Assembly: GCF_004010195.1 (NCBI RefSeq)
Contig: NC_057745.1
Location: 10,194,637 to 10,258,636 of the forward strand
DNA: 64,000 nucleotides
Direction of reading: 5' to 3'
Origin: Chiloscyllium plagiosum
Taxonomy: Eukaryota
Notes under the pieces: model-generated
Told to the model about the DNA's origin: nothing
Databases searched by the model: none
The model's input: the letters and a program-made list of their open reading frames with translations, nothing else
Translations under genes and position numbers: made by a program
Shown: positions 8,706 through 56,989 of the stretch, piece after piece
How positions within the stretch are numbered: the stretch's first letter is position 1
Layout: each line of letters starts with the position of its first letter

Positions 8706-10320
8706 ATGGAATGTCCTGGATGGAAATGCAGATAAAAAAATTGCATATATTGTTAGCATCATCATCAGCATATCTTACCCTGTAACACAGGGAGCTAATA
8801 TATTGGTTGTACCTGCTGAGGGAAGTCACTGGGTTAATATGAGAATTCTAATGGAGGAACTGAAACTTCATGGGCACAACAATACTGTGTTTTATTTCTC
8901 AACATTTCGGTATGCTGAAGAGATGCCTGACTTATATCAATCGATTGTCATTCAGCTGCAAGGAGATGTTGGGAAAACTACAAGTCAAGCGATTTCGCAA
9001 GATTTTATACAAAAATCTATGAATGTTTTACAGAATGGTTCCAAACCGTTGAGTTTCATCAAGCACCAATATAAACTAATGACAACAGTCCACATTGCTC
9101 ATACTTACCTTCAAAGTCTTATCCATGCTGTTTTTCAGAACAGGAGTTTGTTAAATGAACTTGGAAATGCGCACTTTGACATGATAATTGCTGATCCTGT
9201 TTTCCCTGTCGGTCCAATGCTTGCTTATTATTTGAAGCTGCCTTTGGTGTATAATGTTGGTTGGCTCACTAGTGGAGAAGCTGATTTTCTATCTGCCCCA
9301 TCACCACTGTCCTATGTCCCAGTCCTTGGTTCAAAATTGGCAGATAAAATGAGTTTCCTCCAAAGAACTAAAAATTTCATATTGTATTTTCTTCAAACTT
9401 CTGTTACAGGTTTTATTTTTCATCCAATGTACAATGAACTCTGCCATCACTATCTGGGCCCAGACACAGACATTGAGACTGTTCTCCTAAGGGCAGATGT
9501 GTGGCTGATGAGAGTAGACTTTACATTTGAATTCCCGAGACCCACCATGCCCAATATTGTTTATATTGGAGGATTCCAGTGTAAACCACCCAAACCTCTA
9601 GAGGCAGAGTTTGAAGAGTTTGTGCAGTCCTCAGGGGAACATGGGGTTATTGTCATGTCAATGGGGACTATTGTCAATTCTTTGCCAATGCATATTACAA
9701 TGCAAATAGCAGAGGCCTTTGCTCAATTACCTCAGAAGGTTATCTAGAGACACAATGGAGAGACCCCTCCCAACACTGGAAATAATACACTACTGGCAAA
9801 ATGGATCCCTCAGAGTGATCTACTTGGACACCCTAAGACAAGAGCCTTCGTTGCCCATGGTGGCACCAATGGGCTTTATGAAGCCATCTATAATGGAATG
9901 CCAGTAGTTGGCATACCTTTATTTTATGACCAGTTTGATAATTTACTCAGACTTGAAGTCCGAGGTGCAGCAAAAGTGATAAACATTGCAACCATGCAGT
10001 CAACAGATCTATTGCAGGCACTTAATGAGGTTATATATGACACATCTTATCGGGAGAACATGCAGAAACTCTCTGCTCTCCACAGAGACCAACCCGAGTC
10101 TCCAATGGATAGAGCTATTTTCTGGGTTGAGTATGTTGCCCGACACAAAGGGGCACCACATTTGCGCCCAGAATCTTACCGACTCCCCTGGTACGTTTAC
10201 TATTGTGTAGATGTGATGATCTTCCTGGTGTCTTTGTTCTTCATGGGTACAGTGGTGACAGTCCTACTACTGAGAAACCTTTGTTACATCTCTCGGAAGG
10301 AGAAGCAAAAAACCCAGTAA
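8706..10320 (+). pseudogene. UGT5-like pseudogene (copy 1)
   Basis: ATG 8706 (MECPGWKCR) aligns with copy 2 start; TAA at 8733-8735 plus a +1 shift in the A run; in-frame TAG at 9745-9747 replaces the conserved Trp (KVI*RHNGE); ORFs 8803-9747 and 9898-10320 are collinear with copy 2. Confidence 0.9.
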
Positions 10321-10594
10321 GATTAATGTGGTTGAATTGAAAAAGATGCTTCGATAATTTTCAATTTATCAATGGTCATTTCATCCAGTATCTAATTCAT
10401 TCCATCCAGTTGGCATTAATTTGAATTAATGCTTTGAGGAAAGTATCACAGGAGTGACATGCCAGTTAATACTAGACCTCGTGAATAGATGCAGACATGG
10501 ACATGGTGTACTTAAATTTTAAAGAAACAGTGCTTTGTCCAAAACAAATCATCATATTAGTTCACGCGCGATCATGAATTTAAAATAAAGACAC

Positions 10595-10772
10595 ATGACA
10601 ACAAGTTATAGTCAAACAGATTTATTTGAAATCACAAACTTTCAGAGTTCTGCTGCTTCATCAGATGAAGGAGCAGCACTTTATAAGCTTGTGATTTTAA
10701 ATAAACCTGTTGGACAATAACCTGGCATCATGTGACTTCTGTCCACCCCAGTTCAACACCGGCACCTTCACC
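10595..10772. mobile_element. Penelope-derived fold-back mini-element (hammerhead family B, degenerate)
   Basis: Inverted arms ttatagtc.aacag.tttatttg / aataaacctgttggac.ataacc around gatgaaggagcagcac. Confidence 0.65.
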
Positions 10773-11147
10773 TGTTGGTTAAAATAAAGACGATGAGGAA
10801 TTTGGAATTCATTGGCAGAGGAGACAATTTTTGTCACAATTTGCTGATCTATTGTCTCCAGTTGAATTTTCCCAATAAAATTCTATCCTTTTTGTTTTAT
10901 TTGGTCTTTTATTTGCTTCCTCTGTGCTGCCATACACTGGTAATGCTGATATGTGGACATGTTGAAAGTAAGTTTTCCTTTCATAAACTTCACTCTGCCA
11001 TGCAATTATTTCCTCAGCTGCCACAAGGATCATTTACTGCACAAATGACTTTCTTTTCCTCCATACAATATCTTGAGCAGCAACCTCAAAAAAAAATTAA
11101 CATTCCACATCTGTAAATCTTTTTCTTCTCATTTATCAAATTGCATT

Positions 11148-11488
11148 TTAGATTAGATTAGATTAGATTAGATTACTTACAGTGTGGAAACAGGCCCTTC
11201 GGCCCAACAAGTCCACACCGACCCGCCGAAGCGTATAGCACCCAGACCCATACTCCTACATTTACCTCTTCACCTAACACTACGGACAATTTAGCATGGT
11301 CAATTCACCTAACCTGCACATTTTTGGATTGTGGGAGGAAACCGGAGCACCGGAGGAAACCCACGCAGACACGGGGAGAATGTGCAAACTCCACACAGAG
11401 AGTCGCCTGAGGCGGGAATTGAACCCGGGTCTCTGGCGCTGTGAGGCAGCAGTGCTAACCACTGTGCCACTGTGCCACCGTGCCGCCC
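11148..11488 (-). mobile_element. HE1-like V-SINE
   Basis: As 6944-7255; long (attag)n tail. Confidence 0.9.
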
Positions 11489-11699
11489 ATTTTCTGATGC
11501 ATGTATTTGGATTCTGTGGTTCTCTCTGACTATTAGAGCTAACCTCAGCTGGGATCATCACAATTACTGGAAGTTAGAAATATTGCTGTTGAATAGCAAC
11601 TGCTGCAGTATTGAACAATAGGAAGGCAAATACGTCTGCAAACATTTTCTTGATATGGTAGTACTGAATGTAAGACAGGCATAAATAACAAACTATTGT

Positions 11700-11843
11700 G
11701 AATTTTTTTAATAGGTATTTATTGAAAAAAGAAAATTTAAGATTTTTTATAAAATTACAAAAGTAATACAAACAAGTATAAACATCAATATAACATTAAA
11801 TAAATAAGAAGAAAAAATAAATAATAAACAAGAAAGAAAAACC
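11700..11843 (-). mobile_element. Poly(A)-terminated retroelement 3' end (L1/Tx1-like)
   Basis: Minus strand reads T-rich UTR, AATAAA, then A tail. Confidence 0.4.
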
Positions 11844-11919
11844 CAAGCCTCTATCTATGGCTAACAGAACTGAAAAGACATGAGTATGCGGCACAAGACA
11901 TATTCTATGCACCATTGCA

Positions 11920-12566
11920 CCATTACAGTCACACTCTGATGTCCCTGATCACTAACTGGATGTGAATTACTTAATCTCCCAGGTGTGACTGCCTCCTGAA
12001 ACAAAGTGTCCAGGTAACTCTCCCCCTCCTGGATGCGCCGCAGTGTTTGAAGCTCAGATTCCAGATCATCAACTCTGATCCAGAGTTCTTCCAGCAACCA
12101 ACACTTGCTGCAGATGTGGTCACTGCTGTTCACAATGGGATCAGCCAGCTCCCACATCATACAGCTACAGCACACCACCTGACCAGCCATCTCTGCTTAG
12201 TTAATTACTTTATTACTTTGTAAAGGTTTGAGTTAAAATACTTTCTGATACCTCTCTGCTATAGTCATTTTCTAAAAACCAATTAATGGATAAACAGTAC
12301 TTAGTAAGGGGGTTAGAGGAGGAGGGCGGGTGGGAGACACTACGGTTGTAAAGTCTCGGGTTTAGCCACCTTCCTGATTTATATACTCACTGCTTTCCTT
12401 CCCGGCTGCCCCTCTGGTCATCGTCACTTCCCCCTGCTGCTCTCGCTCTTCCTGTGAAGAGAAAAAAAAACACCGCTGTCCGCTACCGGTAAGTAATTTT
12501 AAAACAAACTGTCTTACCTTAGTTGTAGCCTTCCAGGTCGTTTAAACTCAGCAGTTGCTCGCACTC
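11920..12566 (-). mobile_element. CR1 5' UTR and ORF1 N-terminus
   Basis: MAGQVVCCSCMMWE...HICSKCWLLEELWIRVDDLESEL zinc finger/coiled coil of CR1 ORF1. Confidence 0.85.
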
Positions 12567-13690
12567 AAAATCCAGTCAAATGGAGTTGTGTGGAATGTAC
12601 TAGCATGGATAGAGGACTGGTTAACCAATAGAAGGCAGAGAGTTGGAATAAATGTGTGTTTCTTTATTTGGAGATCAGTGGTGAGCAGGTTGCCACAGGG
12701 ATGGGTGTTGGTCCCGCAACTGTTCATGAGATATCTAAATGATTTGGAAGAGGAGGCCAAGTGTAATGTATCCATTACACTTGGTGACACTAAACTGAGT
12801 GGAAAGGCAAACTGTGCAGAGGATATGGCGAGTCTGCAGAGAGATTTAGATAGGTTAAGTGAGTGGGCAAGGGTCTGGCAGATGGAGTATAATGTTGGTA
12901 AATGTGAGGTTATCCACTTTGCAAGTAAAAATAGTAGGCCAGAGTACTTTTTAAATGGTGAGAGATTGCAGCATGCTGTTGTGCAGAGGGACTTAGGAGT
13001 GCTTGTACATGTATCGCCAAAAGTGGATTTTTGCGTGCAACAAGTAATCAGGAAGACAAATGGTATATTGGCTTTCACTGCTCGAGGGGGTTTGAATTTA
13101 AGAGCAGGAGGTTATATTGGAAATGTACAAGGTGTTGGTGAGACTGCACCTAGAGTATTGTGGACAGTTCTGGTCTCCTTATTTCGGAAAGGATACACTG
13201 GCTTTGAAGGCGATGCGGAGGAGGTTCGTCTGTTTGATTCCAGAGATGAGTTGTTACTCTATAAGGAGAGGTTGAGCCACCCGTGCTCGCTAGAATTTAG
13301 ACAAATGAGAGGGGATCTTATAGAATCATATAAAATTATGAAAGGGATAGATAAGATAGAAACAGGTAAGTTATTTCTGCTGGTGGGTGAGACAAGGGCT
13401 AGGGGACAAGGCCTCAAGACTAGGGGCAGTAGATTTAGGACAGAGATAAGGAGGAACTACTTTTCCCAGAGAGTAGTGAATCTATGGAATTCTATGCCCA
13501 AGAAAGCAATAGAGGCAGCTTCATTAAATATATACAAGACACAGTTGGATGGGTTTTTGCATGGTAGGGGAATTAAGGGTTGTTGGGATAGTGCAGGTAA
13601 GAGGATCTGAGATGATGGATATATCAGCCATGAATGGTGGAGCAGGCTCAATGGGCCAAATGGCCTACTCTTGCTTCTATTACTATGAAT
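12567..13690 (+). mobile_element. CR1 ORF2 RT/3' half
   Basis: WIEDWLTNRRQRV, LPQGWVLVPQLF, YFSQRVVNLWN, 3' tail. Confidence 0.9.
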
Positions 13691-13697
13691 GGCTATG

Positions 13698-14035
13698 AAA
13701 AAAAAACAGAAATTGCTGGGAAAACTCAGCAGGTTTGGCAGCATCCGAGGAGAGAAAGCAGAGTTAACATTTCAGGTGCATTGACCCTTCTTCAGAACTG
13801 GCTCTGAAGTTTGAACTATTGAACTGGCAAAGGCTCCTCTGAAGTTAAATGCCAGATCCTTAAACCTGCCTCAATCATTGTCACAAACAAAAACAGAAAT
13901 TGCTGGAAAAACTGAGGAAGGGTCACTCGACCCAAAACATTAATTCTGCTTTCTCTCCACAGACGTTGCCAGACCTGGGGAGCTTTTCCAGCAATTTCTG
14001 TTTTGTTTCTCATTTCCAGCCCTGCAGTTCTTTCT
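13698..14035. mobile_element. Two Penelope-derived hammerhead mini-element fragments
   Basis: Minus ctgaagaagggtcaatgcacctgaaatgtt; plus ctgaggaagggtcactcgacccaaaacatt. Confidence 0.6.
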
Positions 14036-14039
14036 GTCC

Positions 14040-14330
14040 TCATGCACTGTCACACCGTCTGAATTGATCTTGGACCAGTTTTTAATGTCTTCAATCTACG
14101 TGGTGTGACTGACCCTGAAACTCAGTGTCCAGATAGCTCTCCCCCTCCTTGATGTGATACAGTTCCTGCAGCTTGCACTCCAGCTCAACATCTTTAAGCT
14201 AGACATCCTTGAGCAGCTGATTCTTCCTCACTGTCTATCACACAGGCATCCATCCACCAGCTCCCATAAAATCCAGCTGTAACATATCACCTGCCCAACC
14301 ACCTCTATTCTATTTCATTAATCAATTTGG
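14040..14330 (-). mobile_element. Degraded CR1 ORF1 N-terminal fragment
   Basis: Similar to 11960-12190. Confidence 0.55.
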
Positions 14331-14949
14331 ATGTTAAATATTTTAAATATGGATTTCTTAGCCTTTACTCTTCACCTGCAGTAGTGTCTCCATATTTTAA
14401 TCACTTGGCCAACCAACAGAGATAGACAAAATATCCTCATAGCACCTACCTCTTTTCCTGTGATGTCACATTACACTTTGGTTTTGACAGGTAGAAAAAG
14501 GTTAAAGGGACTCTCTGTCACTGGTTTTTAATCTTCAACTGTTACTGCCCTTCTCATAGGTTCATCATGCTCGTTATGAAGCTGTTCATGCACTCTCCTG
14601 TTTATTGAGTCAGCGCTGAGCCTGTTCTCTCTCTCTCTCCCTCTCTCCTGCCCTTTATGAAGTTTCTATCCATGCTCTTTCTCACATTCTCGATGAACCC
14701 ATAGCCCCTGCTTTCTCTTGTAGACAATATGAAACAGCCATGCTGCACTCTTTGAAACATTTCTTTTATTGCAAAAATATTGTTTATTCTTAAAAAATCT
14801 TTATCTAGGGTCCTGTCTGAAACATTGACTTTTGTTCCTTGGATGCTGCCTGACCCCCCTTTGGTATCAAGAAAGACAAACATTGGAAATTGAAAATCCC
14901 TGCCGTTACAAAAACCAAAGGCATTTCTTACTCATGCAGAATGATGTCT

Positions 14950-16100: not shown

Positions 16101-16211
16101 TCAGCTCAGTACCTTGCTCCCCACTGGAAAAATCACATAATGTGCCAAATTCTCTGCACAAAGTGCTTTATTGATTCTGTAGGTTTCGTCTAAGTGACCG
16201 ATGCATATGGA

Positions 16212-16400
16212 TTAGAGATGCCAGTGTTGGACTGGGGCTTACAAAGTTAAAGCCACACAACACCAGGTTATAGTCCAACAGGTTTATTTAGTAGCACTAG
16301 CTTTCGGAGCACTGCTCCTTCATCAGGAAGCTAGTGCTCCGAAAGCTATGCTTCCAAATAAACCTGTTGGACTATAACCTGGTGTTGTATGATTTTTAAT
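16212..16400. mobile_element. Penelope-derived fold-back mini-element with 12-bp TSD
   Basis: TSD gatgcatatgga at 16200-16211 and 16401-16412; inverted arms. Confidence 0.8.
16297..16327 (-). ncRNA. Minimal hammerhead ribozyme motif (family B)
   Basis: cCUGAUGA-aGGAGC-agu-GCUCC-GAAA-GCUA: intact core, stem II, palindromic AGCU stem III. Confidence 0.7.
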
Positions 16401-22800: not shown

Positions 22801-23659
22801 CATACCATATATGTTGATGAGAGAGTCAGAGTCTAGTCTAGTTTGGTATACTGTGATGTAGCATTGCTCACACGCTGGTCGTTATGATCAGTCACGTTCA
22901 TGACATCATCACAAATTTGCTCCAGGGTCCAAAGCCCTTACACGTCAGGAGGGATTTTCCATCATGCCTCCAACTAACTTTGAGAGACTTTCGTAAAGTC
23001 CACTGCTATTTTCATTGTAATATGCATTGACAATAACCTGCAAAGTCACCACAATAATCCCATGTTCTCCTGAGGATTGGACAAACTCTTTAAACTCTGC
23101 CTCTAGAGGTTTGGATTGTTTGACTGAAATGCTCTAAAGTAAACAATAGCAAGGTGGATCTTGAGAATTCAAATATAATATCTATTCTCACCAGCTACAC
23201 ATCTGCCCTTAGTTCAATAATCTCAATATTTGTGTCTGGGCTCATATAGAAATGGCAGAGTTCATTGTAATTTATGTTAACGATAAAGTCTAAAGTGGAT
23301 CATTGAATAAAATTTAGAATGTTCCTAAAGCAGCCAATGCTTGCTGTAGATGTAGTCATCATGAATCACATTGGCATCTGCCATCTCCCACAGCGGGATG
23401 CCAATGGCCTAATGGTATTATCGCTGGACTGCTAAAACCAGGGATCCCGGGTAATAGATGCTGGCCTAACCACCGATGTCCTCATCCTATGAATGAATAA
23501 GATAAAAAAACCACAGCTATAATACATCGCCTGCCCAGCCAAATCTGTTCTATTTACAGTTAAATAAGTAATTTGAATGTTAATTATTTTAAAAGTGATT
23601 TTTTAAACTATGGTCTTCTGATGTTAGAAGATTTCCTCTCGTTGCTGGTTTTTATGTCC

Positions 23660-28420: not shown

Positions 28421-28435
28421 TAATTTTTTCAGTAG

Positions 28436-32494: not shown

Positions 32495-35400
32495 TACAAA
32501 GAACAAAGAAAATTTACAGCCCAGGAACAGGCCATTCGGCCCTCCAAGCCTGAGCCGATCCAAATGTAGTGTCTAAACCTGTCGGTCAATTCCTAAGCAT
32601 CTGTATCCCTCTGCTCCCCACCTACTCATGCATTTGTCGAGATGTATCTTAAATTAATCTACCGTGCCTGTCTCTACCAACTCTGCTGGCAACGCATTCC
32701 AGGCGCCCACCACCCTCTGTGAAGTACTTGTCAAGTGTATCCCCTTTAAACTTTCCACCTCTCACCTTGAAAGCGTGACCTCTCATTATTGAATCCTTCA
32801 CCCTAGGAAAAAGCTTCTCTCTAGCCACCCTGTCTATACCCTTCATGATTTTGTAAATCTCAATCAGGTCCCCTCTCAATCTTCTTTTTTCTAATGAAAA
32901 TTAACCTAACCTTCTCAACCTCTCTTCATAGCTAGCACCTTCCATACCAGCTTCTCAACCTCTCTTCATAGCTAGCACCTTCCATACCAGGCACCATCCT
33001 CGTAAACCTTCGCTGCACCCTCTCCAAAGCATTCACATCCTTTTGGTAACGTGGCAACCAGAACTGTACACAATATTCTAAATGTGGCCAAACCAATGTC
33101 TTGTACAATTTTTTAACATGACTTGCCAGCTCTTATACTCAATACCCCGTCCAATGAAGGCAAGCATACTATATGCCTTCTTGACCACTCTATCCACCTG
33201 TGCAGCAACCTTCACAGTACAATGGACCTGTACTCCCAGATCTCTCTGCCTATCAACTTTTCTCAAGGCTCTTCCATTCATTGTATAATTCGCTGTAGAA
33301 TTAGTCTTGCCTAAATGCATCACCTCACATTTGTCTGGATTGAAAACCATCTGCCACTTTTCCGCCCAACTCTCCAGTCTATCTATATCCTCCTGTATTC
33401 TCTGACAGTCCCTTATGCTTTCTGCTACTCCACCAGTCTTCGTGTCACCTGCAAACTTGCTGATCATACCAACAGTGCCCTCTTCCAGATCATTTATGTA
33501 TATTACAAACAACAGTGGCCCCAACACTGACCCCTGTGGAACACCACTGGTCACCTTTCTCCATTTCAAGAAACTCGCTTCAACTACTATTCTCTGTCTC
33601 CTGTTGCTCAACCAGCTCTTTATCCACCTAGCTAGAACACCCTGCACACCATGTGACTTCACTTTCTCCATTCGTCTACCATGGGGAACTTTATCAAATG
33701 CCTTACTGAAGTCCATGTATATGACATCAACAGCCCTTCCTTCATCTATCAACTTGGTCACTTCCTCAAAGAACTCTATTAAGTTGGTAAGGCATGATCT
33801 CACCCGCACAAAATCAAGTTGCCTATCACTGATAAGCCCATTCTTTTTTAAATATAAATAGATCCTATCCCTCAGTACCTTCTCCAGCAACTTTCCCACC
33901 ACTGACATCAGGCTCACTGGTCTGTAGTTACCCTGAATATCCCTACTACCCTTGCATAGGGGACAACATAAGCAACCCTCCAGTAATCCGGCACCTCACC
34001 TGTATTTAAGGACGCCACAAAGATATCTGTCAGGACCTCAGCTATTTCCTTTCTTGCCTCCCTCAGCAACATGGGATAGATCTCATCCAGTCCTGGGGAT
34101 TTATCCACCTTAATAACCGCTAGCCTACTCAACACATCTTCCCTACTTATGTCAATGTGATCCAGACTAATCAAACTTCTATCTCTAATCTCAACATTCA
34201 TCATGTTCCTCTCCTCAGTGAACACTGATGCAAAGTAATCATTCAGAATCTCACCCATTCTCTCAGGTTTGACACACAGCCTTCCTTCATTATCCTTTAG
34301 TGGATCAATCCTTTCTCTTGTTACCCGCTTGCTTCTTGTATAAGCATAAAATGCTTTGGGATTCTCCTTAATTCTGCTCGCTAAAGCTATTTCATGACCT
34401 CTTTTAGCCTGCTTGATTCCTCATTTAAGACTAATCCTACTCTTCCGATATTCTTCTAGGGCCTGTTCTGTTCTTAGCTGCCTAGACCTTATGTACGCTT
34501 CCCTTTTCCTCTTGGCTAGTCATACAATTTCTCCTGTCATCCACGGTTCATGAATCTTGCCCTTCCTATCCTTTGACTTCAGCAGGACATGCCTATCCTG
34601 CACTATCTTTAACTTATCTTTGAAAGCCTCCCACATCTCAAATGTGGACTTCCCTTCAAATAGCTGTGTCCAATCCACATTTCTGAGCTCCTGCCTAATT
34701 TTGATATAATTGGTCATGGCCCAGTTTAGGATCTCTTTTATCTATGAGTATTCTAAAACTTACAGAATTGTGGTCACTGTTCCCAAAGAAATCCCCCACC
34801 GCAACTTCAACCACCTGGCCTGGCTCGTTCCCCAGTACTAGGTCCAATATGGCCCCTTCCCTCATTGGACTATTGACATACTGCTCTAGAAAACTCTCCT
34901 GGACGCTTCTTACAAATTCAACCCCATTCAGACCTCAGACGTTAAGTGTATCCCAGTCAATGTTGGGAAAATTAAAATCTCCCATCACCACTACCCTATT
35001 GCCTCTACATCTTTCAATAATCTATTTACCTACTTGTTCTTCTATCTCACGCTCACTGTTGGGAAGCCTGTAATACAGCCCCAACAATGTAACTGAACCC
35101 TTCTTATTTCTCAGCTCTACCCATAATGCCTCACTGTTCAATCCCGCCATAGTATGCTCCTTTAGCACAGCCGTGATATCATCCTTGACCAATGCAACTC
35201 CACCTCTCCTTTTACTTCCCTCCCTGTCCTGTCTGAAGCGTCTATATCCTGAAACACTTAATTGCCAATCATCATGCCCTTCCTTCAACCAAGTCTCTGT
35301 GATTACAATAACGTCATACTCCCAGGCACCAATCCAAGCTCTAAGTTCACCTGCCTTACACACTATACTCCTTGCATTAAAGTAGATGTATTTCAGGCCA

Positions 35401-37619: not shown

Positions 37620-37765
37620 TAAGGATTAATATTGCACAATCACAAATTTAAGGATATATATATACCGGCTGTTTAACGTGACTGGAGTCTTTGCTTTATT
37701 TGCAGTCTCAGGTTCCTGGAGTAGAAGACTTGCGGCTTTGTTTGATTTCTGCCTTATCAGTAAGT
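37620..37765 (+). promoter_or_regulatory. Putative promoter and 5' non-coding exon of UGT copy 2 (TATA-like 37654-37664; donor CTTATCA|GTAAGT, GT at 37760)
   Basis: TATATATA run ~100 nt before a donor paralogous to those of copies 1 and 3; HNF1-like GATTAATATTG upstream. Confidence 0.6.
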
Positions 37766-39180: not shown

Positions 39181-39214
39181 TCAATATTTCTATTCAATTC
39201 TCCAATAGGATCTG
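39181..39214 (+). promoter_or_regulatory. Splice acceptor of UGT copy 2 coding exon (TAG|GATCTG, exon starts 39209)
   Basis: tcaatatttctattcaattctccaatAG, matches copy 3 tcaatatttatcttcaattctccaaaAG. Confidence 0.75.
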
Positions 39215-39230
39215 ACTGTTTCATCCGAAT

Positions 39231-40841
39231 ATGAAGTGTCCTAAGTGGAAGAGTAGATTTGGAGTTGCGTCTGTTCTTAGTATCATAATCATCATGTCTT
39301 GTCCAGTAACCCAGGCAGCTAATATATTGGTTGTGCCTGCTGATGCAAGTCATTGGATCAATATGAAAATTCTGATGGAAGAACTGAAAAATCATGGGCA
39401 CAACCTCACTGTGCTTTATTTCTCAACATCTTGGTTTATCAATGCGAGGCCTGATTTATATCAATCCATTGTCTTGCAACTTCAGCAAAACCATAAAGCT
39501 ACAAGTGAAGATATTTTACAAACCTTTGTACAAAGGTCGTTAGATGTTTTGCAGAATAGTTCAACGCCATGGAGTTTTCTCAAGTCTCGGTACAAACTAA
39601 TGTCTTTTTTACACAGCTGTCATAGTTATTTTCAACAGCTTAGCAGCACAACATTTGAAAACAAAAGTTTGTTAGAACAGTTTGAAAATGAACACTTTAA
39701 TTTAGTACTTGCAGATCCTGTTTTTCCCTTAGGTTCAATGCTTGCTTATTATTTAAAACTCCCTTTGGTGCATAATGCACGTTGGCTCATCAGTGGAGAA
39801 GCTCATTTTCTCTTCGCCCCTTCTCCATTATCTTATATCCCAGTGCCAGATTCACGATTGACGGACAAAATGAATTTTTTCCAAAGAACAAAAAATGTCA
39901 TCTTAAGTCTTTTTCATCTATCTGTAACAAAATTCCTGACTCACCCCACATATAATGATCTCTGCCATCACTACCTAGGCCCAGACATAGACATTGACAC
40001 TGTTCTCCTAAGGGCAGATGTGTGGCTAATGAGAGTAGATTTTATATTTGATTTCCCGAGACCCACCATGCCAAATATTATTTATATTGGAGGATTCCAG
40101 TGTAAACCATCTAAATCTCTAGAGGCAGAGCTTGAAGAGTTTGTCCAGTCCTCAGGGGAACATGGGATTATTGTCATGTCTTTGGGGTCCATGGTCAGTT
40201 CTTTATCAATGCATATTACAATGCAAATAGCAGAAGCCCTTGCTCAAGTACCTCAGAAGGTTATCTGGAAACACAATGGAGAGACCCCTCCCAACATAGG
40301 AAATAATACACTACTGGCAAAATGGATCCCTCAGAATGATCTACTAGGGCACCCAAAGACACGAGCCTTCATTGCTCATGGTGGCACCAATGGGCTTTAT
40401 GAAGCCATCTATCATGGGGTGCCAGTAGTTGGCATACCTCTATTTTATGACCAGTTTGATAATTTACTCAGACTTGAAATTCGAGGTGCAGCAAGGGTGA
40501 TTGATATTTCCACCATGCAGTCAACAGATCTATTGCAGGCACTTAATGATATTATACATAACACATCTTATTGGGAGAACATGCAGAAACTCTCAGCTCT
40601 CCACAGAGGCCAGCCAGAGACTCCAATGGAGAGAGCTATTTTCTGGATTGAGTACGTAGCCCGACACAAAGGGGCGCCACATTTGCGCCCAGAGTCTTAT
40701 AGACTCCCTTGGTATGTTTACTATTGTGTAGATGTGGTGATCTTCCTATTGTTACTGTTCCTCATGCTTCCAACATTGGCAGTTGTACTGATAAAGAAAT
40801 TGTGTAACATTGCTTGGCAAGAGAAACAAAAAATTCTGTGA
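39231..40841 (+). CDS. UDP-glucuronosyltransferase, UGT5-like, intact single coding exon, 536 aa (copy 2)
   Basis: Signal peptide, catalytic His motif (VPADASHWINM), ADP Asp, ADVWLMRVDFIFDFPRPTMPNIIYIGGFQCKP (typical of UGT5), UGT signature WIPQNDLLGHPKTRAFIAHGGTNGLYEAIYHGVPVVGIPLFYDQ, C-terminal TM helix, KQKIL dilysine-type ER tail; no coding introns. Confidence 0.95.
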   Translation: MKCPKWKSRFGVASVLSIIIIMSCPVTQAANILVVPADASHWINMKILMEELKNHGHNLTVLYFSTSWFINARPDLYQSIVLQLQQNHKATSEDILQTFVQRSLDVLQNSSTPWSFLKSRYKLMSFLHSCHSYFQQLSSTTFENKSLLEQFENEHFNLVLADPVFPLGSMLAYYLKLPLVHNARWLISGEAHFLFAPSPLSYIPVPDSRLTDKMNFFQRTKNVILSLFHLSVTKFLTHPTYNDLCHHYLGPDIDIDTVLLRADVWLMRVDFIFDFPRPTMPNIIYIGGFQCKPSKSLEAELEEFVQSSGEHGIIVMSLGSMVSSLSMHITMQIAEALAQVPQKVIWKHNGETPPNIGNNTLLAKWIPQNDLLGHPKTRAFIAHGGTNGLYEAIYHGVPVVGIPLFYDQFDNLLRLEIRGAARVIDISTMQSTDLLQALNDIIHNTSYWENMQKLSALHRGQPETPMERAIFWIEYVARHKGAPHLRPESYRLPWYVYYCVDVVIFLLLLFLMLPTLAVVLIKKLCNIAWQEKQKIL

Positions 40842-42000
40842 TTATGCTTTTGAAGTGAGAGAGGAGGACTTAGACAGTTCACCCAACAGCATACTGCATA
40901 CACTGTCTGATATGATTTGTCAATCTTTGAAATTATATATGAGCATCACAATGGCATTGATGTACATACTCTACATGATTCATTTGTGTGTTGGGCAGAA
41001 TGTGTTTCTAGCTGGATTTGTTGCGAACACCACTCATGTTGTTCCTGCATAGTCTTATACCTATGCTAATGGAATGATGATGATTCACTCAGAGGTATTC
41101 ATTAACTTTGTGTGTTAGATTATTTAAAATAATGAAACCCTTTATAAGTTATGAAGCAGGCATTTCAGAAACCAATTGATTTCTGACTGTATAGTTTGCT
41201 GACAAATGGCAGGCAGAGACACAACATTATATGCACACAGCAACTGGAGTTCTTAAGGACAAACTTGCTTAATGGCAAGATTTGCATACAGTATACAGTA
41301 GCAGCTTCAAATATCTAGTTTCACATATTGCTCAAAGTATTGAGATGCTTTACTCTTCCAGGGTAACGAGTGATGCATGATCACAAGTGGCAGCCTTCGG
41401 CCTGGTTCACAGATTTGTGTGACACACATTGAGTCATGATCATATAATATTAAGTGTTCCTTCCCCTTACATTGTATCTCTTGCAAAAGTCTGGATAAGT
41501 GCAAGATGAAAATGTATTTTCTTTAACAAAACACAAATGAATTTGTCAAAGAAGAGCTGAAATTCAGCTGACACCTGAGAACAGTTCATTACTGTATAAA
41601 GTTCCAATCCGATCTATTCTAAATGTGGTGATTGGAACCTCGTTTATGGTGTATGCAGATAATTACATCAGGCTCCGAAAAAGAATCAAATCAAAATCGA
41701 AGCGTTAACTCAGTTTCTATCTTCATAAATGCAGCCAGACCTGCTGAATTTCTCTTGCACTTTGTGTTTTCGATTTAAAATTTCCAGCAGTTGCAGTATT
41801 TTGCTTCTACATCCGGGTTCTGGCTGATTGTAATGCAGGGGCATTCCAGAAAGTTATGATAAACATTTGATAACTGAGCTATGAAAGCAAGATAATCTAC
41901 TCTCTGCATCTGTTTTCCATCAGTGCCTGATGAAATGAAGGAGTCTGTTTGTTGAATGAGATAACCGTGTACTCGCACTGACTGAATGAGTTTTACAATG

Positions 42001-45224: not shown

Positions 45225-47593
45225 CTGAAGGGGAAGGGTGAGCAGTCAGAAATCGTGGTACATATTGACACCAATGATATAGCCAGGAAAGGGACTGAGG
45301 AGCTTAAAAGTGACTACAGAGAGCTAGGTTGGAAGCTGAAGAGCAGGGCAAGTAGAGACCGTTCTCAGGTTTGCTACCGGTGCCATGAGATAGTGAGGTG
45401 AGGAACAGGCATCGAGCGCAACTGGTGCAAGGAGGGAGGGCTTCAGATATTTAGACCATTAGGATGCCTTCTGGGAAAGGGGGGACCTGTACATGAAGGA
45501 CAGGTTGCATCTGAATTGGAGGGGCACAAAAGTCCTGGGTGGGAGATTTGCTCCTGTGGTTCGGGAGGGTTTACACTAGTTTAGGAGGGGAGTGGGGACC
45601 AGAGCTACGTATCTGAGAGGGGGTAGTTAGATATGGGGCAGTGACAGATGTAGTGAATCTATCAGTAAGGTTATTCGTGTGATGGAACAAAGAGATCAGT
45701 TAAAGTGTGTCTGCTTTAATGCAAGGAGTGTCAGAAATAAGAGTGATGACCTTAGAGCATGGATTGGCTCGTGGGACTGTGATGTTGTTGCCATAACAGA
45801 GACGTGGGTTTCACAGGGGCGGGAATGGTTGCTAGATGTTCCAGGATTTAGAATGTTTAAAAAGAACAGGGAGGGTGGAGAAAGAGGAGGGGGTGTAGCA
45901 TTGCTAATCAGAGAGTGCATCACGAAGAAAAGGGACCTTATTGTGAATGAAAACTTTGAGGAGTTGGGAAACAGGCTTGAACAGATCAAGATTGATGAAT
46001 CTGATGTGTTGGAAATTTTGGCAAACATTAAGATTGATAAGTCCCCAGGGCCAGACCAGATTTATCCTAGGTTGCTTTGGGAAGCGGGAAAGGAGGTTGC
46101 TAAGCCGCAGGCAAAGATCCTTGTTTCCTCACCCTCCATGGGAGTTGTATCAGAGGATTGGAGGGAAGCGAATGTTCTTCCTCTTTTTAAAAAGGGGAAT
46201 AGGGAAATCACTGGCAATTACAGACCAGTCAGTCTTACATCTGTGGTCAACAATGTTTTGGAAAGAATTCTGAGGGATAGGATTTATGACTAATGGAAAA
46301 GCATAGCGTGATTAAAGGCAGTCAGTGTGGCTTTGTGAGGGGCAGGTCATGCCTCACAAATCTTAGTGAGTTCTTTGAGGTGGTGATGAGACAGGTCGAC
46401 AAAGGTTGAAGAGTGGATGTGGTGTATATGGACTTCAACAAAGCATTTGATAAGGTTCCCCATGGTAGGCTCATGCATAAATTCAGGAGATGTGGGATAC
46501 AGGCAGGTTTGGTTGTCTGGATTCAGAATTGGTTGGCTGACAGAAGGCAGAGAGTGGTTGTAGATGGAAAGTATTCTGCCTGGAGGTCAGTGGTGAGTGG
46601 TGTCCCACAGGGCTCTGTTCTTGGGCCTCTGCTCTTTGTAGTTTTTATAAATGACTTGGATGAGGAGGTTGAGGGGTGTGTTAGTAAATTTGCCAATGAC
46701 ACGAAGGTTGGAGGTGCAGTTGATAGTATTGAGGACTATTGCAGGCTGCAGCATGACATGGACAGGATGCAGAGCTGGGCTGAGAAATGGCAGATGGAGT
46801 TCAACCTGGAAAAATGTGAAGTGATGTATTTTGGAAAGTCGAACATGAATGCTGAACATAGGGTTAATGACAGGATTCTTGGCAGAGTGGAGGAGCAGAG
46901 GGACCTTGGTGTTCAAGTGCATTGATCGCTTAAAATTGCTACCAGAGTGGATAGGGTTGTTACAAAAGCATATGGTGTTTTGGTTTTCATTAACAGGGGG
47001 ATCAAGTTTAAGAGCTGCGAGATTTTGCTGCAGCTCTACAAGTCCCTGGTGAGACCACACTTGGAATATTGTGTCCAGGTCTGATCGCCCTATTATAGGA
47101 AAGATATGGAGGTTTTGGAGAAGGTGCAAAGAAGGTTTACCAGAATACTACCTGGACTGAAGGGCTTATCTTACGAAGAAAGGTTGACTAAGCTCAGACT
47201 TTTCTCTTTGGAGAGAAGGAGGAAGAGAGGTGACCTGATTGAGGTATACAAGGTAATGAGAGGCGTGGATAGAGTCAATAGCCAGAGACTTTTCCCCAGG
47301 GCAAGATTGACTGGCACGAGGCGTCATAGTTTTAAGATTTTAAGAGGAAGATATAGAGGAGACATCATAGGTAGGTTCTTTACGCAGAGAGTTATGAATG
47401 CATTGCCAGCAGTGGTGGTGGAAGCAGAGTCATGAGGGACATTAAGAAATTGTTGGATATGCACATGGACAGCAGTGAATTAAGGGGTGTGTACATTAGG
47501 TTATTTTATTTTAGATTAGGAATAATCCTCAGCACAACATCTTGGGCCAAATGGCCTGTGCTGTGCTGTACTTTTCTATGTTCTATGTTCTAT
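45225..47593 (+). mobile_element. CR1 LINE, 5'-truncated, with internal deletion near 45922
   Basis: ORF1 esterase end, APE start fused in frame to pre-RT region (ALLIRECIT|KKRDL), RT, (tgttcta)n tail. Confidence 0.9.
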
Positions 47594-49275: not shown

Positions 49276-49279
49276 AAAA

Positions 49280-52200
49280 GACAAGTAGTAGTTAATAGGG
49301 AATTCTATAATTCGGGATCGTTTGTAAGCAGGATTGAGAATCCTGTATGGTATGTTGTCTGACAAGTCCTAGGATGCCAGACATCTCTGACTGGCTTGAA
49401 AGGATATTGAAGAGAGAGGGAGAGCATCTAGTTGCTGTGGTCCATGTTGGGAAAAACAACGTAGGCAAGACTAGGAAAGAGGACCTGTTTCGGGGTTATC
49501 AGGAATTAAGAATCAATTTAAAGAACAGATCGTCAAAGGTTATAATCTCCGGATTACTACCTGAGTCATGTGCTAATTGGCATAGGGATGTGAGAATAAG
49601 GGAAGTAAACGTTTGGCTAAAAGGGTGGTGCTGCAAAGAGGGGTTCCTTTTCATGGGGCACTGGTGTCAGTATTGGAACAGGAGGAATCCATGCTGCTGG
49701 GACAGTCTCCACCTGATCTGAGTTGGGAGCAGTGTTTTAGCGAAAAGAGTAAATAGGGTGTTCAACAGGACTTTAAACGAGGAAGGGAGGAGGGAGGGAA
49801 TGGTAAAACTCCACGAAGTGTAATGATCAATAGAAAGTAAGGCAGCATGTTTACATCTGTGGGGGTGGATTCAACTGCATGGAAAAATATCAAAAAAATG
49901 AAAACAAAGGAGAACTCAGGAGAAGTTATTAAAGTCTCCAGTACACAAAATAGGACAGAATCAAACTTCAAACACACTGGATAAACGAGTAACAATGAGA
50001 AGAGGGACGGTCAATATGGGACTGAAGGTGTTGAATCTGAATGCGCACAGTGCAGGAAATAAGGTAAATGTGGCGCAGATCATAATTGGTGGGTATGATG
50101 TGATGGGCATCACGGAGACATAGCTGCAAGTGGATCAGGACTGGGAGCTAAATATCCAAGTATATGCATTCTATCGAAAAGACAGGCAGGTGGGCAGAAC
50201 AGTTAAGGTTGCCTTGTTAGTAAAAAAGTGAAATTAAATCAATAGCAATCAACAAAGTAGGGGCAGATGATGTAGAATCTTTGTGGGTAGAGTTGAGGGA
50301 CTGCAAAGGTGAAAATAACTATAAAGGGAATTATGCACATGCCTCCAAACAGTAGTTAGGATTTGAGACATAAGATACACCAAGAGATAGAAAAGGCATG
50401 TAAGAAAGGTAAGATTATAGTGATCGTGGGGGATTTCAATATGCAGGTGGACTGGGAAAATCAGATTAGCAATAGATCACAAGAAAAGGAATTTGTGGAA
50501 TGTCTATGAGACGGCTCTTTGGAGCAGCTTGTGGTAGAACCCACTAGGGAGCAGGCAATACTGGATTTAGTGTTGTGCAATGAGGCGGACTTAATAAGGG
50601 AGCTTAAAGTGAAGGAACGCTTAGGAGGCAGTGACTATAATATGATAGAATTGACTCTGCAGTTTGAGAAGGATAAAGTGGAATCAAATGTAATGGTATC
50701 ATGGTTGAATAAAGGCAACTACAGAGGCATGGGGGAAGAGCTGACCAGAATTGACTGGGAGAGGGGCCTGGCAGGAAAGACAGTGAAACATCAATGGCAG
50801 GAGTTTCTGGGAGTAATTCAGGGGACACAGCAGAGATTCATCCTGAGGAAAATGAAGCATACTAAAGGGAAGATGAGGCAACCATGGCTGACCAGGGAAG
50901 TCAGGGATAGAATAACAGAAAAAGAGAAAGCATATAATGTGGCGAAGGGCATTTGAAGGCCAGAGGATCAGGATGCTTATAAAGACCAGCAGAGAACAAT
51001 GAAGAAAATATGAGTGTAAGCTAGCTGGTAATATTAGAACAGATTGCAAGAGTTTCTTTAGAGATATAAAGGGCAGAAAAGAGGCAAAAGTAGACACTAG
51101 ATGGCTGGAAACTGATGCTGGAGAAGTAGTAATGGAGAACAAAGAAATAGCAGGGGAACTGAATAAGTACTTTGTGTCAGTCTTCATGGTGGAAAACACG
51201 AGCCACATCCCAAAAGGCGGGGAGGAGGCAGACCATCACCCTGGGGAAGATGCTTGAAAAACTGAAAGGTTTGAGAGTAGATAAATCACCTGGACCAGAT
51301 AGGCTACACCCTAGAGTTCTGAAGGAGATAGCTGAAGAGATAGTGTAGACTTTAGTGGTGATCTTTCAGGTATCACCGGAGTCAGGGAAGGTCCCAGAGG
51401 ACTGGAAAATTGCTAATGTGACCCCCCCCCCCCACCTTAGTTAAAAAGGGAGCAAGGCAAAAGATGGGAAATTGTAGGCCAATTAGCCTGACCTCAGTTG
51501 TTGATAAAATTTTTGAGTCCATTGTGAAGGATGAGATTTCTGAATACTTGGAAGTGCATGGTAAAATAGGGCAAAGTCAGCATGGTTTCATCAAGGGGAG
51601 GTCATACCTCACACATGTTTGAGTAGATAATGAGCAGGTTAGACCAAGGAAAGGTAATGGTTGTTATTTACCTGGATTTCAGAAGGCCTTTGATAAGGTG
51701 GTGCACAGGAAGCTGCTGAGTAAGATATGAGGCTGTGGTGTTAGAGGCAAGGTACTAGCATGGATAGAGGATTGGCTGTCTGGCAAAAGACAGAGAATGG
51801 GGATAAAAGGGTCCTTCACAGGATGGAAGCTGGTGACTAGCTGATGGATAAATATATGGATGATATGGATGATAATGGAATGCTGCAGCTTAGATGGGCT
51901 TCAGATTGGTTTTACAGGTCGGCGTAACATCCAGAGCCAAAGGACCTGTGCTGCATTGTAATGGTCTATGTCCTAGTGCTGTTTCACGTGGGTCAGTGTT
52001 GGGACCACAGCTTTTTATTTTATGCATTCATGAGCTGGGTGAAGGAACTTGAGGCATTCTGGCTAACTTTGCAGAAGATACAAAGATAAGTGGAGGGACA
52101 GGCAGTATTGAAGAGTGGGAGAGAAAGGATTTACATATGTTAGGAAAGTGGTCAAAGAAGTGGCCGATGAACTTCATGGTGAGAAAGAATGAGGTCAAGC

Positions 52201-52915
52201 CCTTTGATGGGAAGAATAGAGGCATGGATAATTTTCTAAATTGCTAGAAAATTCAGAAATCTGGAGTCCTAGTCCAAGGTAACTTTGTAGGTTGAGTCAG
52301 TAGTTAAGAAGGCAAATACAATGATAGCATTTATTTCGAGAGAACAAGAATATAAAAACGGGGATATACTTTTGAGGCTTTATAAAACTCTGGTCAGACC
52401 ACATTTAGAATATTGGGAGCAATTTTGGGTCCTTTACTTCAGGAAGGATGTACTAGCCCTGGAGCAAGTCCAGAGGAGGTTCATGAGAATGATCCCAGGA
52501 ATGTAAGGCCTAACATATGAGGAAGGTTTGTGGACTCTGGGATTATACTTGATGGAGTTTAGAAGGATGAGGAGGGATCTGATTGAAACTTACAGAATAC
52601 TAAATAGCCTAGACAGAGTGGATATTGGGAAGATGTTTCCATTGGCAGGAGAGACTATGACCAAGGGCACAGCCTTAGAGTAAAGGGAAGGCCCTTTAGA
52701 ATGGAGATGAGGAGAAACTTCTTTAGTCAGAGAGTGGTGAATCTGTGGAATTCATTGCCACAGAAGGCTATGGAGGCCAGGTATACTAAAGACTGAGAGA
52801 GATAGGTTCTTGATTGCCAAGGGGATCGAAGGTTGCAGAAAGAAAGCCGTGGTTGAATGGCAGAGCAGCCTCGATAGGCAAAATGGCCTGATTTCTGCAC
52901 CTAAATCTTATGGTC
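49280..52915 (+). mobile_element. CR1 LINE (ORF1 esterase + ORF2), with a short nested CR1 3' tail at ~51841-51975
   Basis: VVHVGKNN..VIISGLLP..WDSLHL; EPTREQAILDLVL; LVRPHLEY; 3' end. Confidence 0.9.
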
Positions 52916-53337
52916 TCGATCATTGACAAGAAGAAGATACAGTTACATAAAGTCTTAGGAAAGCAAAAGGTAAATGCAGCAAAATAGTAAGGGTGTTTTG
53001 CTAACATTGTGTAGTACTTTGGAGAAATCACTCCTTGAGATTGTCCAAATTAAGGACTGATTTGTTTTAGAATGGAAGCAATAAATGTTTACAAAATAGA
53101 TTCCTGGGTTAAGAGGGTTGTCTGATGAGTAACAGATTAGCTGAGTAGGCCAAATTTTCAAGGGTTTGGAAGTCTGAAACATTAATCTAAAATGAAATTA
53201 TAAAATTGACAGAGGCTTTATTCTGAAGATATTGGAATACTATGTTTCATTACTCATATTATAATATGAGGTAATAGAACTAGAACTGGATCTAGAATTA
53301 GAACTCAGAATTACACCATTAGAATAAGGAAAAAATT

Positions 53338-54395
53338 TGCAAGGTTTGTGAAGGTTTGTAGCTCAGGTTGAGGTTTAGGGTGTAGGTTTGCTCGCTGAGC
53401 TGTAGGTTTGATATCCAGACGTTTAATTACCTGGCTAGGTAACATCATCAGTGGCGACCTCCAAGTGAAGCGAAGCTGTTGTCTCCTGCTTTCTATTTAT
53501 ATCTTTCTCCTGGATGGGGTTCCTGGGGTTTGTGGTGATGTCATTTCATGTTCGTTTTCTGAGGGGTTGATAGATGGCATCTAGATCTATGTGTTTGTTT
53601 ATGGCGGTGTGGTTGGAGTGCCAGACCTCTAGGAATTCTCTGGCATGTCTATGCTTAGCCTTTCCCAGGATAGATGTGTTGTCCCAGTTGAAATGCTGTT
53701 TTTTTTCATCCGTATGTAGGGCTATGAGGGAGAGGGGGTCGTGTCTTTTTGTGGCTAGCTGGTGTTTATGTATCCTGGTGGCTAACTTTCTTCCTGTCCA
53801 GAAATGACAGCCAGACTACTGAGACCCCTCGGAATCCTAGTAGCACACAAACCCACCAACACTCTCAAACAAAAACTAACAAACGTAAAAGACCCAGTAC
53901 AACCCATGGACAAAACCAACATCATCTATAAAATTCCATGCAAGGACTGCCACAAACACTATGTAGGACAAACAGGAAGAAAGTTAGCCACCAGGATGTA
54001 TGAACACCAGCTAGCCACAAAAAGACACGATCCCCTCTCCCTCATAGCCCTACACACGGATGGAAAAAACCAGCATTTCAACTGGGACAACACATCTATC
54101 CTGGGAAAGGCTAAGAAAAGACATGCCAGAGAATTCCGAGAGGCCTGGCACTCCAACCACAACGCCATAAACAAGCACATAGATCTAGATGCCATCTATC
54201 AACCCCTCAGAAAACGAACAGGAAATGACATCACCACAAACCCCAGGAACCCTATCCAGGAGAAAGATATAAATAGAAAGCAGGAGACAACAGCTTCGCT
54301 TCACTTGAAGGTCGCCACTGATGATGTTACCTAGCCAGGTAACGAAACGTCTGGATATCAAACCTACAGCTCAGCGAGCAAACCTACACCCTAAA
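53338..54395. mobile_element. Penelope-like element, inverted structure, GIY-YIG endonuclease, 12-bp TSD
   Basis: ORF 53804-54334 IIYKIPCKDCHKHYVGQTGRKLATRMYEH; arms 53373-53797 / 53972-54395; TSD aaggaaaaaatt at 53326-53337 and 54394-54405. Confidence 0.92.
54315..54354 (+). ncRNA. Minimal hammerhead ribozyme motif of the Penelope element
   Basis: CCA-CUGAUGA-u-GUUACC-uagcca-GGUAAC-GAAA-CGUC-UGG: stem I CCA/UGG, perfect 6-bp stem II, GUC site. Confidence 0.8.
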
Positions 54396-54544
54396 GGAAA
54401 AAATTCTTAAGAAGGTTATGAATTTTTACAATTGTCTACCCAGTGAGTTGTGGGTGCTCAATGCATTGAAGAATTATTTGAATAGATTTTTGGAAATTAA
54501 GGGGAAGTAAAGTTGAAATTGTTCAGCTACCTCCTTCTTGAAAG

Positions 54545-55237
54545 AAACAAAAAAAACCGCAGTTGCTAGAGTCCAAAGTAGTCAAGCAGGAGGCTGGATG
54601 AACACAGCAAGCCAGGCAGCATCAGGAGGTGGGGAAGTTGAAATTCCGTGTACACCCATTCTTCAGGAAGGGGGGGGGTGGGGTTAGTGGGAGCTGCAGA
54701 TAAGGAGAGGGGGGGGGGGGGAAGGGTTTTGGGTGGGGAGGGAGCAGAGCAGTGAGCTAGTGATAGGTAAACATAGGAGGTGGGTATGACCTGATTGGTC
54801 GATGGGAGGAATGAATCTGGTTGGTAGCTGGAAAGAAGGATTGGTAAGTGGAATGAAAGGGAGGGGGGGCTGGAAAGGGAGTCAGGGAATGGGAATGGAG
54901 GTTATTTGAAATTGGAAAACTCAATGTTGACTCCTCCCAGCTGTCGGCTACCCAGGTGGAAGATAAGGTGATGTTCCTTCAATTTGTGGTCTGATTCACT
55001 GTGGCAATGGAGGAGATTGAGGATGTACATTTTGGAGGAGTGGGAAGGGGAATTGAAGTAGGCAGTGACTGGGAGGTCAGGCTGGCCCTTACGGGCCCGG
55101 CTGAGACGCTCATTAAAATGTGCCCTTGGTTTGCGTTTGGTCTCCCCGATGTAGAGGAGACCTCATCAGGGGCACTGGATGCTGTAAACTAGGTTGGAGG
55201 AGAGGAGGATAAACCTCTGTTTCACCTGGAAGGACTC
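54545..55237 (-). mobile_element. Second Penelope-like element 3' part (different lineage), decayed GIY-YIG
   Basis: Minus strand SNLVYSIQC...LLYIGETKRK...PVTAYFNSPSHS...LIFHLGS...NIEFSNF*; 3' end resembles family A mini-elements. Confidence 0.8.
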
Positions 55238-55327
55238 CTTATTATAAGACAGGGAAGGTTCAGAGGGCCAATTGCCCTAGGTTTGCTTGTATGTTTTAAG
55301 TCATGTTTTTAAATTTATGCTGTATTG

Positions 55328-55361
55328 TCAATATTTATCTTCAATTCTCCAAAAGGATCTG
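55328..55361 (+). promoter_or_regulatory. Splice acceptor of UGT copy 3 coding exon (AAG|GATCTG, exon starts 55356)
   Basis: Same acceptor motif 25 nt before the ATG. Confidence 0.7.
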
Positions 55362-55380
55362 GAAATTCCTTGCTCTTGAA

Positions 55381-56989
55381 ATGGATCATTTTGCATGGAA
55401 AAGAGGGTTCCATGTTGCATGCTTTCTTAGTTTTTTCATTGCCCTGTCTTATCCAATTACCCAGGGAGCTGATATATTGGTTGTCCCTGTTGATGGAAGT
55501 CATTGGGTCAATATGAGAATTCTAATAGAAGAGCTAAAACGTAATGGGCGCAATATCACTGTGCTTTATTCTGCAGGATCATTGTACATCAAAGAGCAGC
55601 CTGATCTATATCAATCCATTGCAGTTGAATTGCAAGGATTCGTTGACAGAAATATGAGCAAAGACATTCTGCAAAATTTAGTTCAAAAGACACTAGAAGC
55701 CTTAAAGTTTGATTGGACACTATGGGGATCTGTTAAGTTCCAGTATGAAATGATGTCTTTTGTTCATGCCTTTCACTCTTGGGCACTACAGCTAAATTTT
55801 ACAATTTATGAAGGATTTGTTGAAACAATTTGAAAATGCACATTTTGACTTAATGTTGACTGATCCTGCTTTACCTACAGGTCCAATGCTTGCTTATTAT
55901 TTAAAACTTCCCTTGGTATATAACGTTCGATGGCTCAGCAATGGAGAAGCTCATTTTCTCTTTGCCCCATCACCACTATCCTATATCCCAACCCCTGGTT
56001 CCAGATTGACAGATGAAATGAGTTTACTCCAAAGGACAAAAAATGTCATCTTTAGTCTGTTTCAACTCTCCAATTTTAAATTTCTAACTGAGCCTATGTA
56101 CAAAGAACTCTGCCATCGCTATCTGGGCCCAGACACAGACATTGAGACTGTTCTCCTAAGGGCAGATGTGTGGCTGATGACAGTAGATTTTATATTTGAA
56201 TTCCCAAGACCCACCATGCCAAATATTGTTTATATTGGTGGATTCCAGTGTAAACCACCCTCATCTCTACAGGCAGAGTTTGAAGAACTTGTCCAGTCCT
56301 CAGGAGAACATGGGATTATTGTCATGTCAATGGGGACTGTTATCAACTCTTTGCCAATGCATATTGCAATGCAAATAGCAGAGGCCTTTGCTCAAGTGCC
56401 TCAGAAAGTTATCTGGAAACATAATGGAAAGATCCCTCCCAACATTGGAAATAATACACTATTGGCAAAGTGGATCCCTCAGAATGATCTACTAGGACAC
56501 TCCAAAACACGAGCCTTCGTTCCTCATGGTGGCACCAATGGAGTTTATGAAGCCATCTATCATGGGGTGCCAATAGTTGGCATACCTCTGCTTTTTGATC
56601 AGTTTGATAATTTACTCAGACTTGAAGTCCGAGGTGCAGCAAAAGTGATGAACATTGCAACCATGCAGTCAACAGATCTACTGCAGGCACTTAATGAGGT
56701 TATACATAACACATCTTATCGGGAGAACATGCAGAAACCCTCTGCTCTCCACAAAGACCAACCCGAGTCTCCAACGGAGAGAGATATTTTCTGGATTGAG
56801 TATGTGGCCCGACACAAAGGAGCAGCACGTTTACGCTCAGAATCTTACCGACTCCCCTGGCACATTTACTATTGTGTAGATGTGATGATCTTCCTGTTGG
56901 TTGTGCTACTAATGCTTACAATCCTGACAGTTGTACGGATGAAGAAATTTTGTAACATTGTCTCAAAAAGAAAGCTAAAAACTCAGTAA
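55381..56989 (+). pseudogene. UGT5-like pseudogene (copy 3)
   Basis: ATG 55381 (MDHFAWKRGF...VPVDGSHWVNM); frameshift near 55812 consistent with a 5-nt deletion (TATGAA-----GGATTTG); changes in conserved motifs (GHSK, FVPHGG, MQKPSA, ERDIFW, LMTVDF). Confidence 0.88.

Follow-up and report, generated by a model that had tools for sequence, protein, structure and literature searches.

Two types of modular organization are relevant to the locus described here. In UGT enzymes, the N-terminal domain contains four hypervariable regions of the acceptor pocket, and gene conversion is not predominant in the vertebrate Ugt1 and Ugt2 clusters, according to the accessible text of PMC1885805. For TLR1 and TLR6 of mammals, the accessible text of PMC2077338 describes N-terminal parts related orthologue-wise, a C-terminal region of about 300 amino acids related paralogue-wise, and independent conversion events with near-identical limits in each lineage. 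We analyzed a window of 64,000 nucleotides from the bamboo shark Chiloscyllium plagiosum (assembly GCF_004010195.1, contig NC_057745.1, positions 10,194,637 to 10,258,636), which contains three same-strand single-exon UGT5-type genes (c1, c2, and c3) separated by retroelement-rich DNA. Very probably, these genes are old tandem paralogues in which a C-terminal block (codons ~242 to 503) is far younger than the N-terminal halves, having been overwritten by recurrent gene conversion restricted to this domain.

The array shares with TLR1/TLR6 the presence of tandem same-strand paralogues related orthologue-wise in their N-terminal and paralogue-wise in their C-terminal parts in several lineages. 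The features of that system, as far as the accessible text of PMC2077338 presents them, are all found in the shark array, including homogenization of silent sites, with the exception of discrete significant tracts. In contrast to TLR1/TLR6, as depicted there, the shark array consists of at least eight enzyme genes with paralogues dating back to the shark-ray split, the transmembrane (TM) segment and tail lie largely outside the block, and turnover is too slow for grouping by species among close relatives. The UGT1 and UGT2A clusters also display diverse acceptor-binding N-terminal halves on a common donor-binding half (PMC1885805 and PMC2819257, accessible parts), but each shark gene has its own C-terminal half within one exon, and these halves are ~90% rather than 100% identical. 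A single-exon open reading frame (ORF), a non-coding 5′ exon, and tandem clusters are shared with the Ugt5 genes of teleosts and amphibians, the only groups in which Ugt5 is recorded in the accessible text of PMC2819257; there, the word ‘shark’ is absent and the passage on gene conversion deals with protocadherins. In the clustered protocadherins, too, conversion takes place among large exons that are tandem paralogues (Noonan et al. 2004, as cited in PMC1885805). Unlike the shark genes, these exons are variable ones, joined by splicing to constant exons. Protocadherin conversion is reportedly domain-restricted. The mechanism is already known, from TLR1/TLR6, and the elasmobranch UGT5 array is very probably a further instance of it; no report of gene conversion in elasmobranch UGT5 was found in the literature searched, mostly without subscription papers and supplements.

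A search of the C. plagiosum genome identified eight copies, all on the plus strand, in a tandem array of ~150 kb on C36 that continues past both ends of the window, in the order A (L005), B (L004), c1 (gene C), c2 (gene D), c3 (gene E), F (L006), a decayed copy (L012/L031), G (L002), and H (L008). Single-exon paralogues unlinked to the array were found on C14 and C39. The initial annotation had proposed that this cluster acquired a variable/constant design without shared exons, by regional gene conversion, and had compared c1 with c3. The reported counts were exact, with 49 mismatches at 132 positions (8917–9048 versus 55591–55722) and 7 at 156 (9436–9591 versus 56105–56260), and sit near the extremes of the range observed in 100-nt windows. 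Identity in such windows was 0.49–0.85 in the N-terminal part, 0.83–0.96 in the block, the copies of which differ by ~10%, and 0.54–0.76 in the TM segment and tail. Synonymous divergence per site (dS, Nei-Gojobori method), the profile of which along the coding sequence (CDS) had been set beforehand as a refuting test, was not uniform: the three pairs of window genes gave values of 0.90, 0.79, and 0.95 for codons 31–243 and of 0.23, 0.17, and 0.30 for codons 244–502. For the 21 pairs formed by seven array genes, dS was 0.52–1.07 in the N-terminal and 0.16–0.33 in the C-terminal half. Fourfold-degenerate sites differed at 57/140 positions in the N-terminal half and 41/297 in the block for the window pairs (Fisher p per pair of 0.003, 3 × 10–4, and 1 × 10–4); for all pairs, which are not independent, the differences amounted to 421/996 in the N-terminal half, 314/2169 in the block, and 51/132 in the TM segment and tail, in keeping with the loss of similarity initially noticed there. 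N-terminal stretches conserved at the amino-acid level (codons 31–60 and 152–225) still differed at 283/703 fourfold sites. Thus, the low dS is not just a by-product of constraint on the protein.

The two-breakpoint model that best fitted the synonymous differences placed the breaks after codons 241 and 503 (c2 numbering), within a few bases of the block limits initially proposed (~9436–10222, ~39960–40745, and ~56105–56895). In c2, the block comprises the end of the N-terminal Rossmann domain, the linker, and the UDP-sugar domain as far as the TM segment. Intervals of 2 log-likelihood units (lnL) extended from codon 224 to 261 for the 5′ edge and from codon 440 to 530 for the 3′ edge, the latter being soft because of this width. 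The G+C content at third codon positions (GC3) rises in the block from ~0.32 to ~0.41. GC-biased conversion is not claimed since the unlinked paralogue displays a similar rise, from 0.48 to 0.64.

The halves were then compared across species using an alignment of 87 rows. It combined 10 C. plagiosum genes, with H represented by database model P0007, and 77 proteins of chondrichthyans drawn from one search (120 listed of 4154 matches) and from the members of 20 clusters; teleost proteins, most isoforms and partial proteins, and some further copies from skates and the catshark genus were excluded. In the N tree, based on a 33-row subset, gene A joined zebra-shark, catshark, skate, and stingray proteins (support of 100/97), indicating that at least the split between A and the remaining genes predates the shark-ray split. 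Genes B, C, D, F, and G were each paired with a zebra-shark protein (support of 99–100). The C tree was organized by lineage, with supports taken from a quick tree of the 87 rows: batoids formed one clade (0.98), and groupings were also obtained for skates (0.996), sawfish (0.888), electric ray (0.993), carpet sharks (0.951), mackerel sharks (0.945), four zebra-shark copies (0.955), and, weakly, catshark copies (0.727). The C14 paralogue remained with its orthologues in both trees. In approximately unbiased (AU) tests on 21 proteins, the N-terminal half rejected the C tree (ΔlnL of 590, p = 4 × 10–51) and the C-terminal half rejected the N tree (ΔlnL of 251, p = 2 × 10–5). A tree-free check gave the same picture for all ten A-type proteins, from four orders, which were closer to A-type proteins of other orders in their N-terminal half and to non-A proteins of their own order in their C-terminal half. 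This switch falls after codon 241, the position of the DNA breakpoint, as located by pooled A-type comparisons rather than by species-by-species mapping. Residues diagnostic of carpet sharks versus skates occupied 0/213 N-terminal and 12/259 C-terminal columns. In the TM segment and tail, the zebra-shark orthologue was closer than the mean C. plagiosum paralogue for 6/6 genes, indicating that the block is bounded at either end; orthology was deduced from the N tree, which renders the N-terminal side circular, whereas the agreement of the TM segment and tail is independent. The contrast between halves recurred in eight species with at least four sampled copies. The two halves did not give the same tree and, as had been predicted, N-terminal halves grouped by paralogue. 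The accompanying prediction, that C-terminal halves group by species, held at the level of order or family and within zebra shark, catshark, and sawfish, but not for C. plagiosum relative to its closest relatives.

The drop in dS and the opposed trees support regional gene conversion as the origin of the variable/constant design. Ectopic conversion among neighboring copies would repeatedly overwrite the C-terminal block. Conversion extending into the acceptor-binding half would erase the substrate specificity of a copy and would be removed by selection, the purged events being those overwriting the four hypervariable regions. The diverged N-terminal half may also be too dissimilar for further exchange, including in the short conserved islands between hypervariable regions. 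Conversion in the long interchangeable UDP-sugar block would be tolerated and would keep it similar enough for conversion to continue. The expected outcome is a set of many variable acceptor domains combined with a donor domain that is nearly common to all copies, with no sharing of exons. Two decayed copies, one inverted at 22948–23320 and one split by insertions (L031 2407–7214), have drifted to 73–85% identity to the live blocks, indicating that dead copies are not kept homogenized.

Several observations weigh against recurrent conversion as the explanation, or limit its pace. The cross-species evidence is based on proteins only. The comparison of the array with the unlinked C14 paralogue, in which fourfold differences barely drop (212/336 in the N-terminal and 369/660 in the C-terminal half), is near saturation and involves a different GC3. 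All five C blocks compared were closer to their Hemiscyllium orthologue (10–18 of ~259 residues) than to any C. plagiosum paralogue (20–29), so that 0/5 had a paralogue closer than the orthologue. In the C tree, c2 retained its zebra-shark orthologue (SH-aLRT of 98), and the grouping of the C. plagiosum blocks was weak (83) and absent from the 21-row tree. A run test inside the block was significant after correction for 0/21 pairs (best raw p of 0.008, Bonferroni 0.17), and the sole corrected tract match was in the N-terminal part (B/G, codons 210–224, p = 0.021). Finally, conversion and repeated unequal crossing-over are not fully separable. Since the C-terminal halves do not group C. plagiosum against its closest relatives, homogenization appears slow or episodic rather than current at the species level. 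No usable value for calibration of synonymous divergence was present in the accessible text of PMC10620051.

Repeated unequal crossing-over or domain shuffling, generating chimeras of old N-terminal halves and a recently spread C-terminal half, is the alternative that survives best, although we regard it as improbable. Its proponents could invoke the gain and loss of copies in the array, manifest in the relics and in the recent pair G/H (dS of 0.09), and the lack of any significant discrete tract in the block. However, similarity reverts to a paralogue-wise pattern in the TM segment and tail, unlike the outcome of a single crossover, and informative sites within the block form a star-like patchwork with low bootstrap values. 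Purifying selection alone, by which a conserved UDP-sugar domain and a fast acceptor domain would evolve with no sequence exchange, was given even less chance. Unlinked paralogues are also more conserved in the C-terminal than in the N-terminal half (p-distances of 0.13–0.29 versus 0.17–0.49), and amino-acid constraint increases near the codon that forms the block edge. This explanation is nevertheless refuted by the threefold drop at silent sites, which concerns the block and not the conserved N-terminal stretches (314/2169 versus 283/703), by the mutual rejection of the trees of the two halves, and by lineage-specific residues common to all paralogues in the C-terminal half only. An assembly artefact, in which C-terminal halves were collapsed or swapped among copies, has a negligible probability since the blocks differ by the ~10% noted above, pair with Hemiscyllium orthologues, were matched exactly for c2 by three long contigs that overlap one another and come from another run, and show a pattern that recurs in the eight species with at least four sampled copies, even if a patchwork in gene H resembles such an error.

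The latter patchwork is a frameshifting duplication of 169 nt (L008 2770–2938), the second copy of which matches gene B and then gene A with zero mismatches. None of four runs covered L008 2780–2853 and no listed contig bridged the junction; this missing cover proves nothing by itself. The mosaic was dropped as evidence for a fresh conversion footprint, its junction having no read support, and the duplication is probably an assembly error.

Diversifying selection on the N-terminal domain, which the initial annotation had considered as a possibility, was only weakly indicated. Site models were fitted with our own codon-model script to codons 31–241 of seven genes from one start, giving an omega of 0.38 under M0, a 2ΔL of 4.6 for M8 versus M8a (p = 0.03), and a p value of 0.048 for M8 versus M7. 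The selected class in M8 comprised ~2% of sites, and one site (codon 87) adjoins an alignment gap. Among 20 listed of 21 differences between the array DNA and orthologue DNA of another organism (X17), 13 were non-synonymous and 7 synonymous; this comparison is confined to the N-terminal part because the contigs of the C-terminal part are short and probably contain paralogous sequence as well. Positive selection on the N-terminal half is therefore at best weak.

Assignment of the array to the UGT (UDP-glycosyltransferase) family of detoxifying enzymes is based on c2, for which the PF00201 UDPGT profile gave a full-length match (residues 31–525, E = 1.6 × 10–152). The translation contains the putative catalytic residues H41 (in SHW) and D162 (in ADP), a signature motif, a signal peptide, a TM segment, and a dilysine tail; H41 and D162 were equated with H39 and D151 of UGT1A1 by motif position and not by alignment. 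The N-terminal half was 42% identical to teleost UGT5D1 and 28–30% identical to UGT1/UGT2-type exons in BLAST comparisons, and the genes were filed as Ugt5-type on this basis, by nearness rather than by a tree of all Ugt5 subfamilies. Automatic annotation names the single-exon A-, B-, F-, and G-type genes UGT2A1/2A2/2C1-like or UGT1-2-like, though they are nearer to UGT5. Database proteins labelled as bamboo shark match these four genes at ≥99.4%, leftover gaps being an effect of projection onto c2. Exon sharing is rejected since every copy has its own contiguous C-terminal half. The c2 ORF is uninterrupted and covered without a joint by contigs; three long overlapping contigs of run X1, guessed to be RNA, cover 39209–41000 with zero differences, and the edge between the halves is crossed by a contig without difference. 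Loose ends in two runs match the 3′ end of a first exon that lacks coding sequence, with GT and AG sites at the ends of the intron (Table 1); upstream of c1 and c3, only a similar acceptor is present. An additional nucleotide near the start and a TAG codon at 9745–9747 interrupt c1. Either this gene was lost recently or the assembly is in error here, since the orthologue is intact in the epaulette shark Hemiscyllium (P0124, 93.5%). As judged from its reading frame, c3 is likely a pseudogene; it forms long branches in trees, and no orthologue was found among the sampled proteins.

The 5′ edge of the block lies close to a splice junction of another UGT cluster. On C2 (G000:C2 146.20–146.31 Mb; L016–L024, L032), a UGT2A-type cluster combines a minimum of six variable first exons with downstream exons that they share. 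Six of these variable exons end in YYSE(V/A/I)LG- or YHSEVLG- followed by GT donors, and the next shared exon starts with G-KPTT. By motif, this junction corresponds to YLG-PD at c2 codon 250, ~8 codons after the block edge, the UGT1-type junction being located near codon 298. UGT1-type exons were also observed on C7 (L013, L014). We tentatively consider, as a doubtful extension of the conversion hypothesis, that the array has held since before the shark-ray split a ‘constant region’ kept by recombination, with an edge fixed by selection at the UGT2A seam (codon ~241–250) and conversion actively favored. New changes in the donor domain would then have to reach all copies, for example for dimerization or for interaction with a shared partner. 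If so, the conversion edge and the UGT2A splice junction would be two independent routes to one design. Since protein constraint rises at this position in unlinked paralogues too, the match may reflect only the location of both just beyond the last hypervariable segment.

The DNA between the UGT genes contains many LINE-type reverse-transcriptase fragments (e.g., 12546–13607, 33081–33995, and 45631–46922) and a SINE-like repeat of ~320 nt (6940–7257 and at least five more copies). The ORF fragment flanked by an inverted repeat (Table 1) resembles what we take to be a piece of a GIY-YIG/Penelope-type retroelement.

Table 1. Features of the window. C block: region that conversion has very probably homogenized.
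Feature	Position	Strand	Remarks
c1 (gene C), UGT5-type copy, single-exon CDS	8706..10320	+	broken in this assembly
c1 C block	9433..10218 (approx.)	+	
Inverted frameshifted relic, start of C block	22948..23320	-	75–79% identical to live copies, not homogenized
c2 non-coding first exon, 3′ end	37736..37759	+	GT follows at 37760; AG acceptor before 39209
c2 (gene D), UGT5-type copy, single-exon ORF	39231..40841	+	intact, 536 aa, PF00201
c2 C block, codons 242–503	39954..40739	+	
Inverted repeat, 424 nt, 95.8% identical	53374–53797 and 53972–54395		flanks ORF fragment
c3 (gene E), UGT5-type copy	55381..56989	+	frameshifted by 5-nt deletion at ~55810
c3 C block	56102..56887 (approx.)	+	

The array provides a clear case of domain-restricted concerted evolution in vertebrate UGTs, which contrasts with the published view that birth and death is the main mode of evolution of the vertebrate Ugt1 and Ugt2 clusters, and it broadens the Ugt5-type family to include sharks and rays. 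Whole-gene trees, automatic names (2A1/2A2/2C1-like), and read mapping will misassign the genes of the array, and the N-terminal half is the guide to orthology. With a conversion edge approximating the UGT2A splice junction, the modularity of acceptor and donor domains becomes testable by chimeric enzymes.

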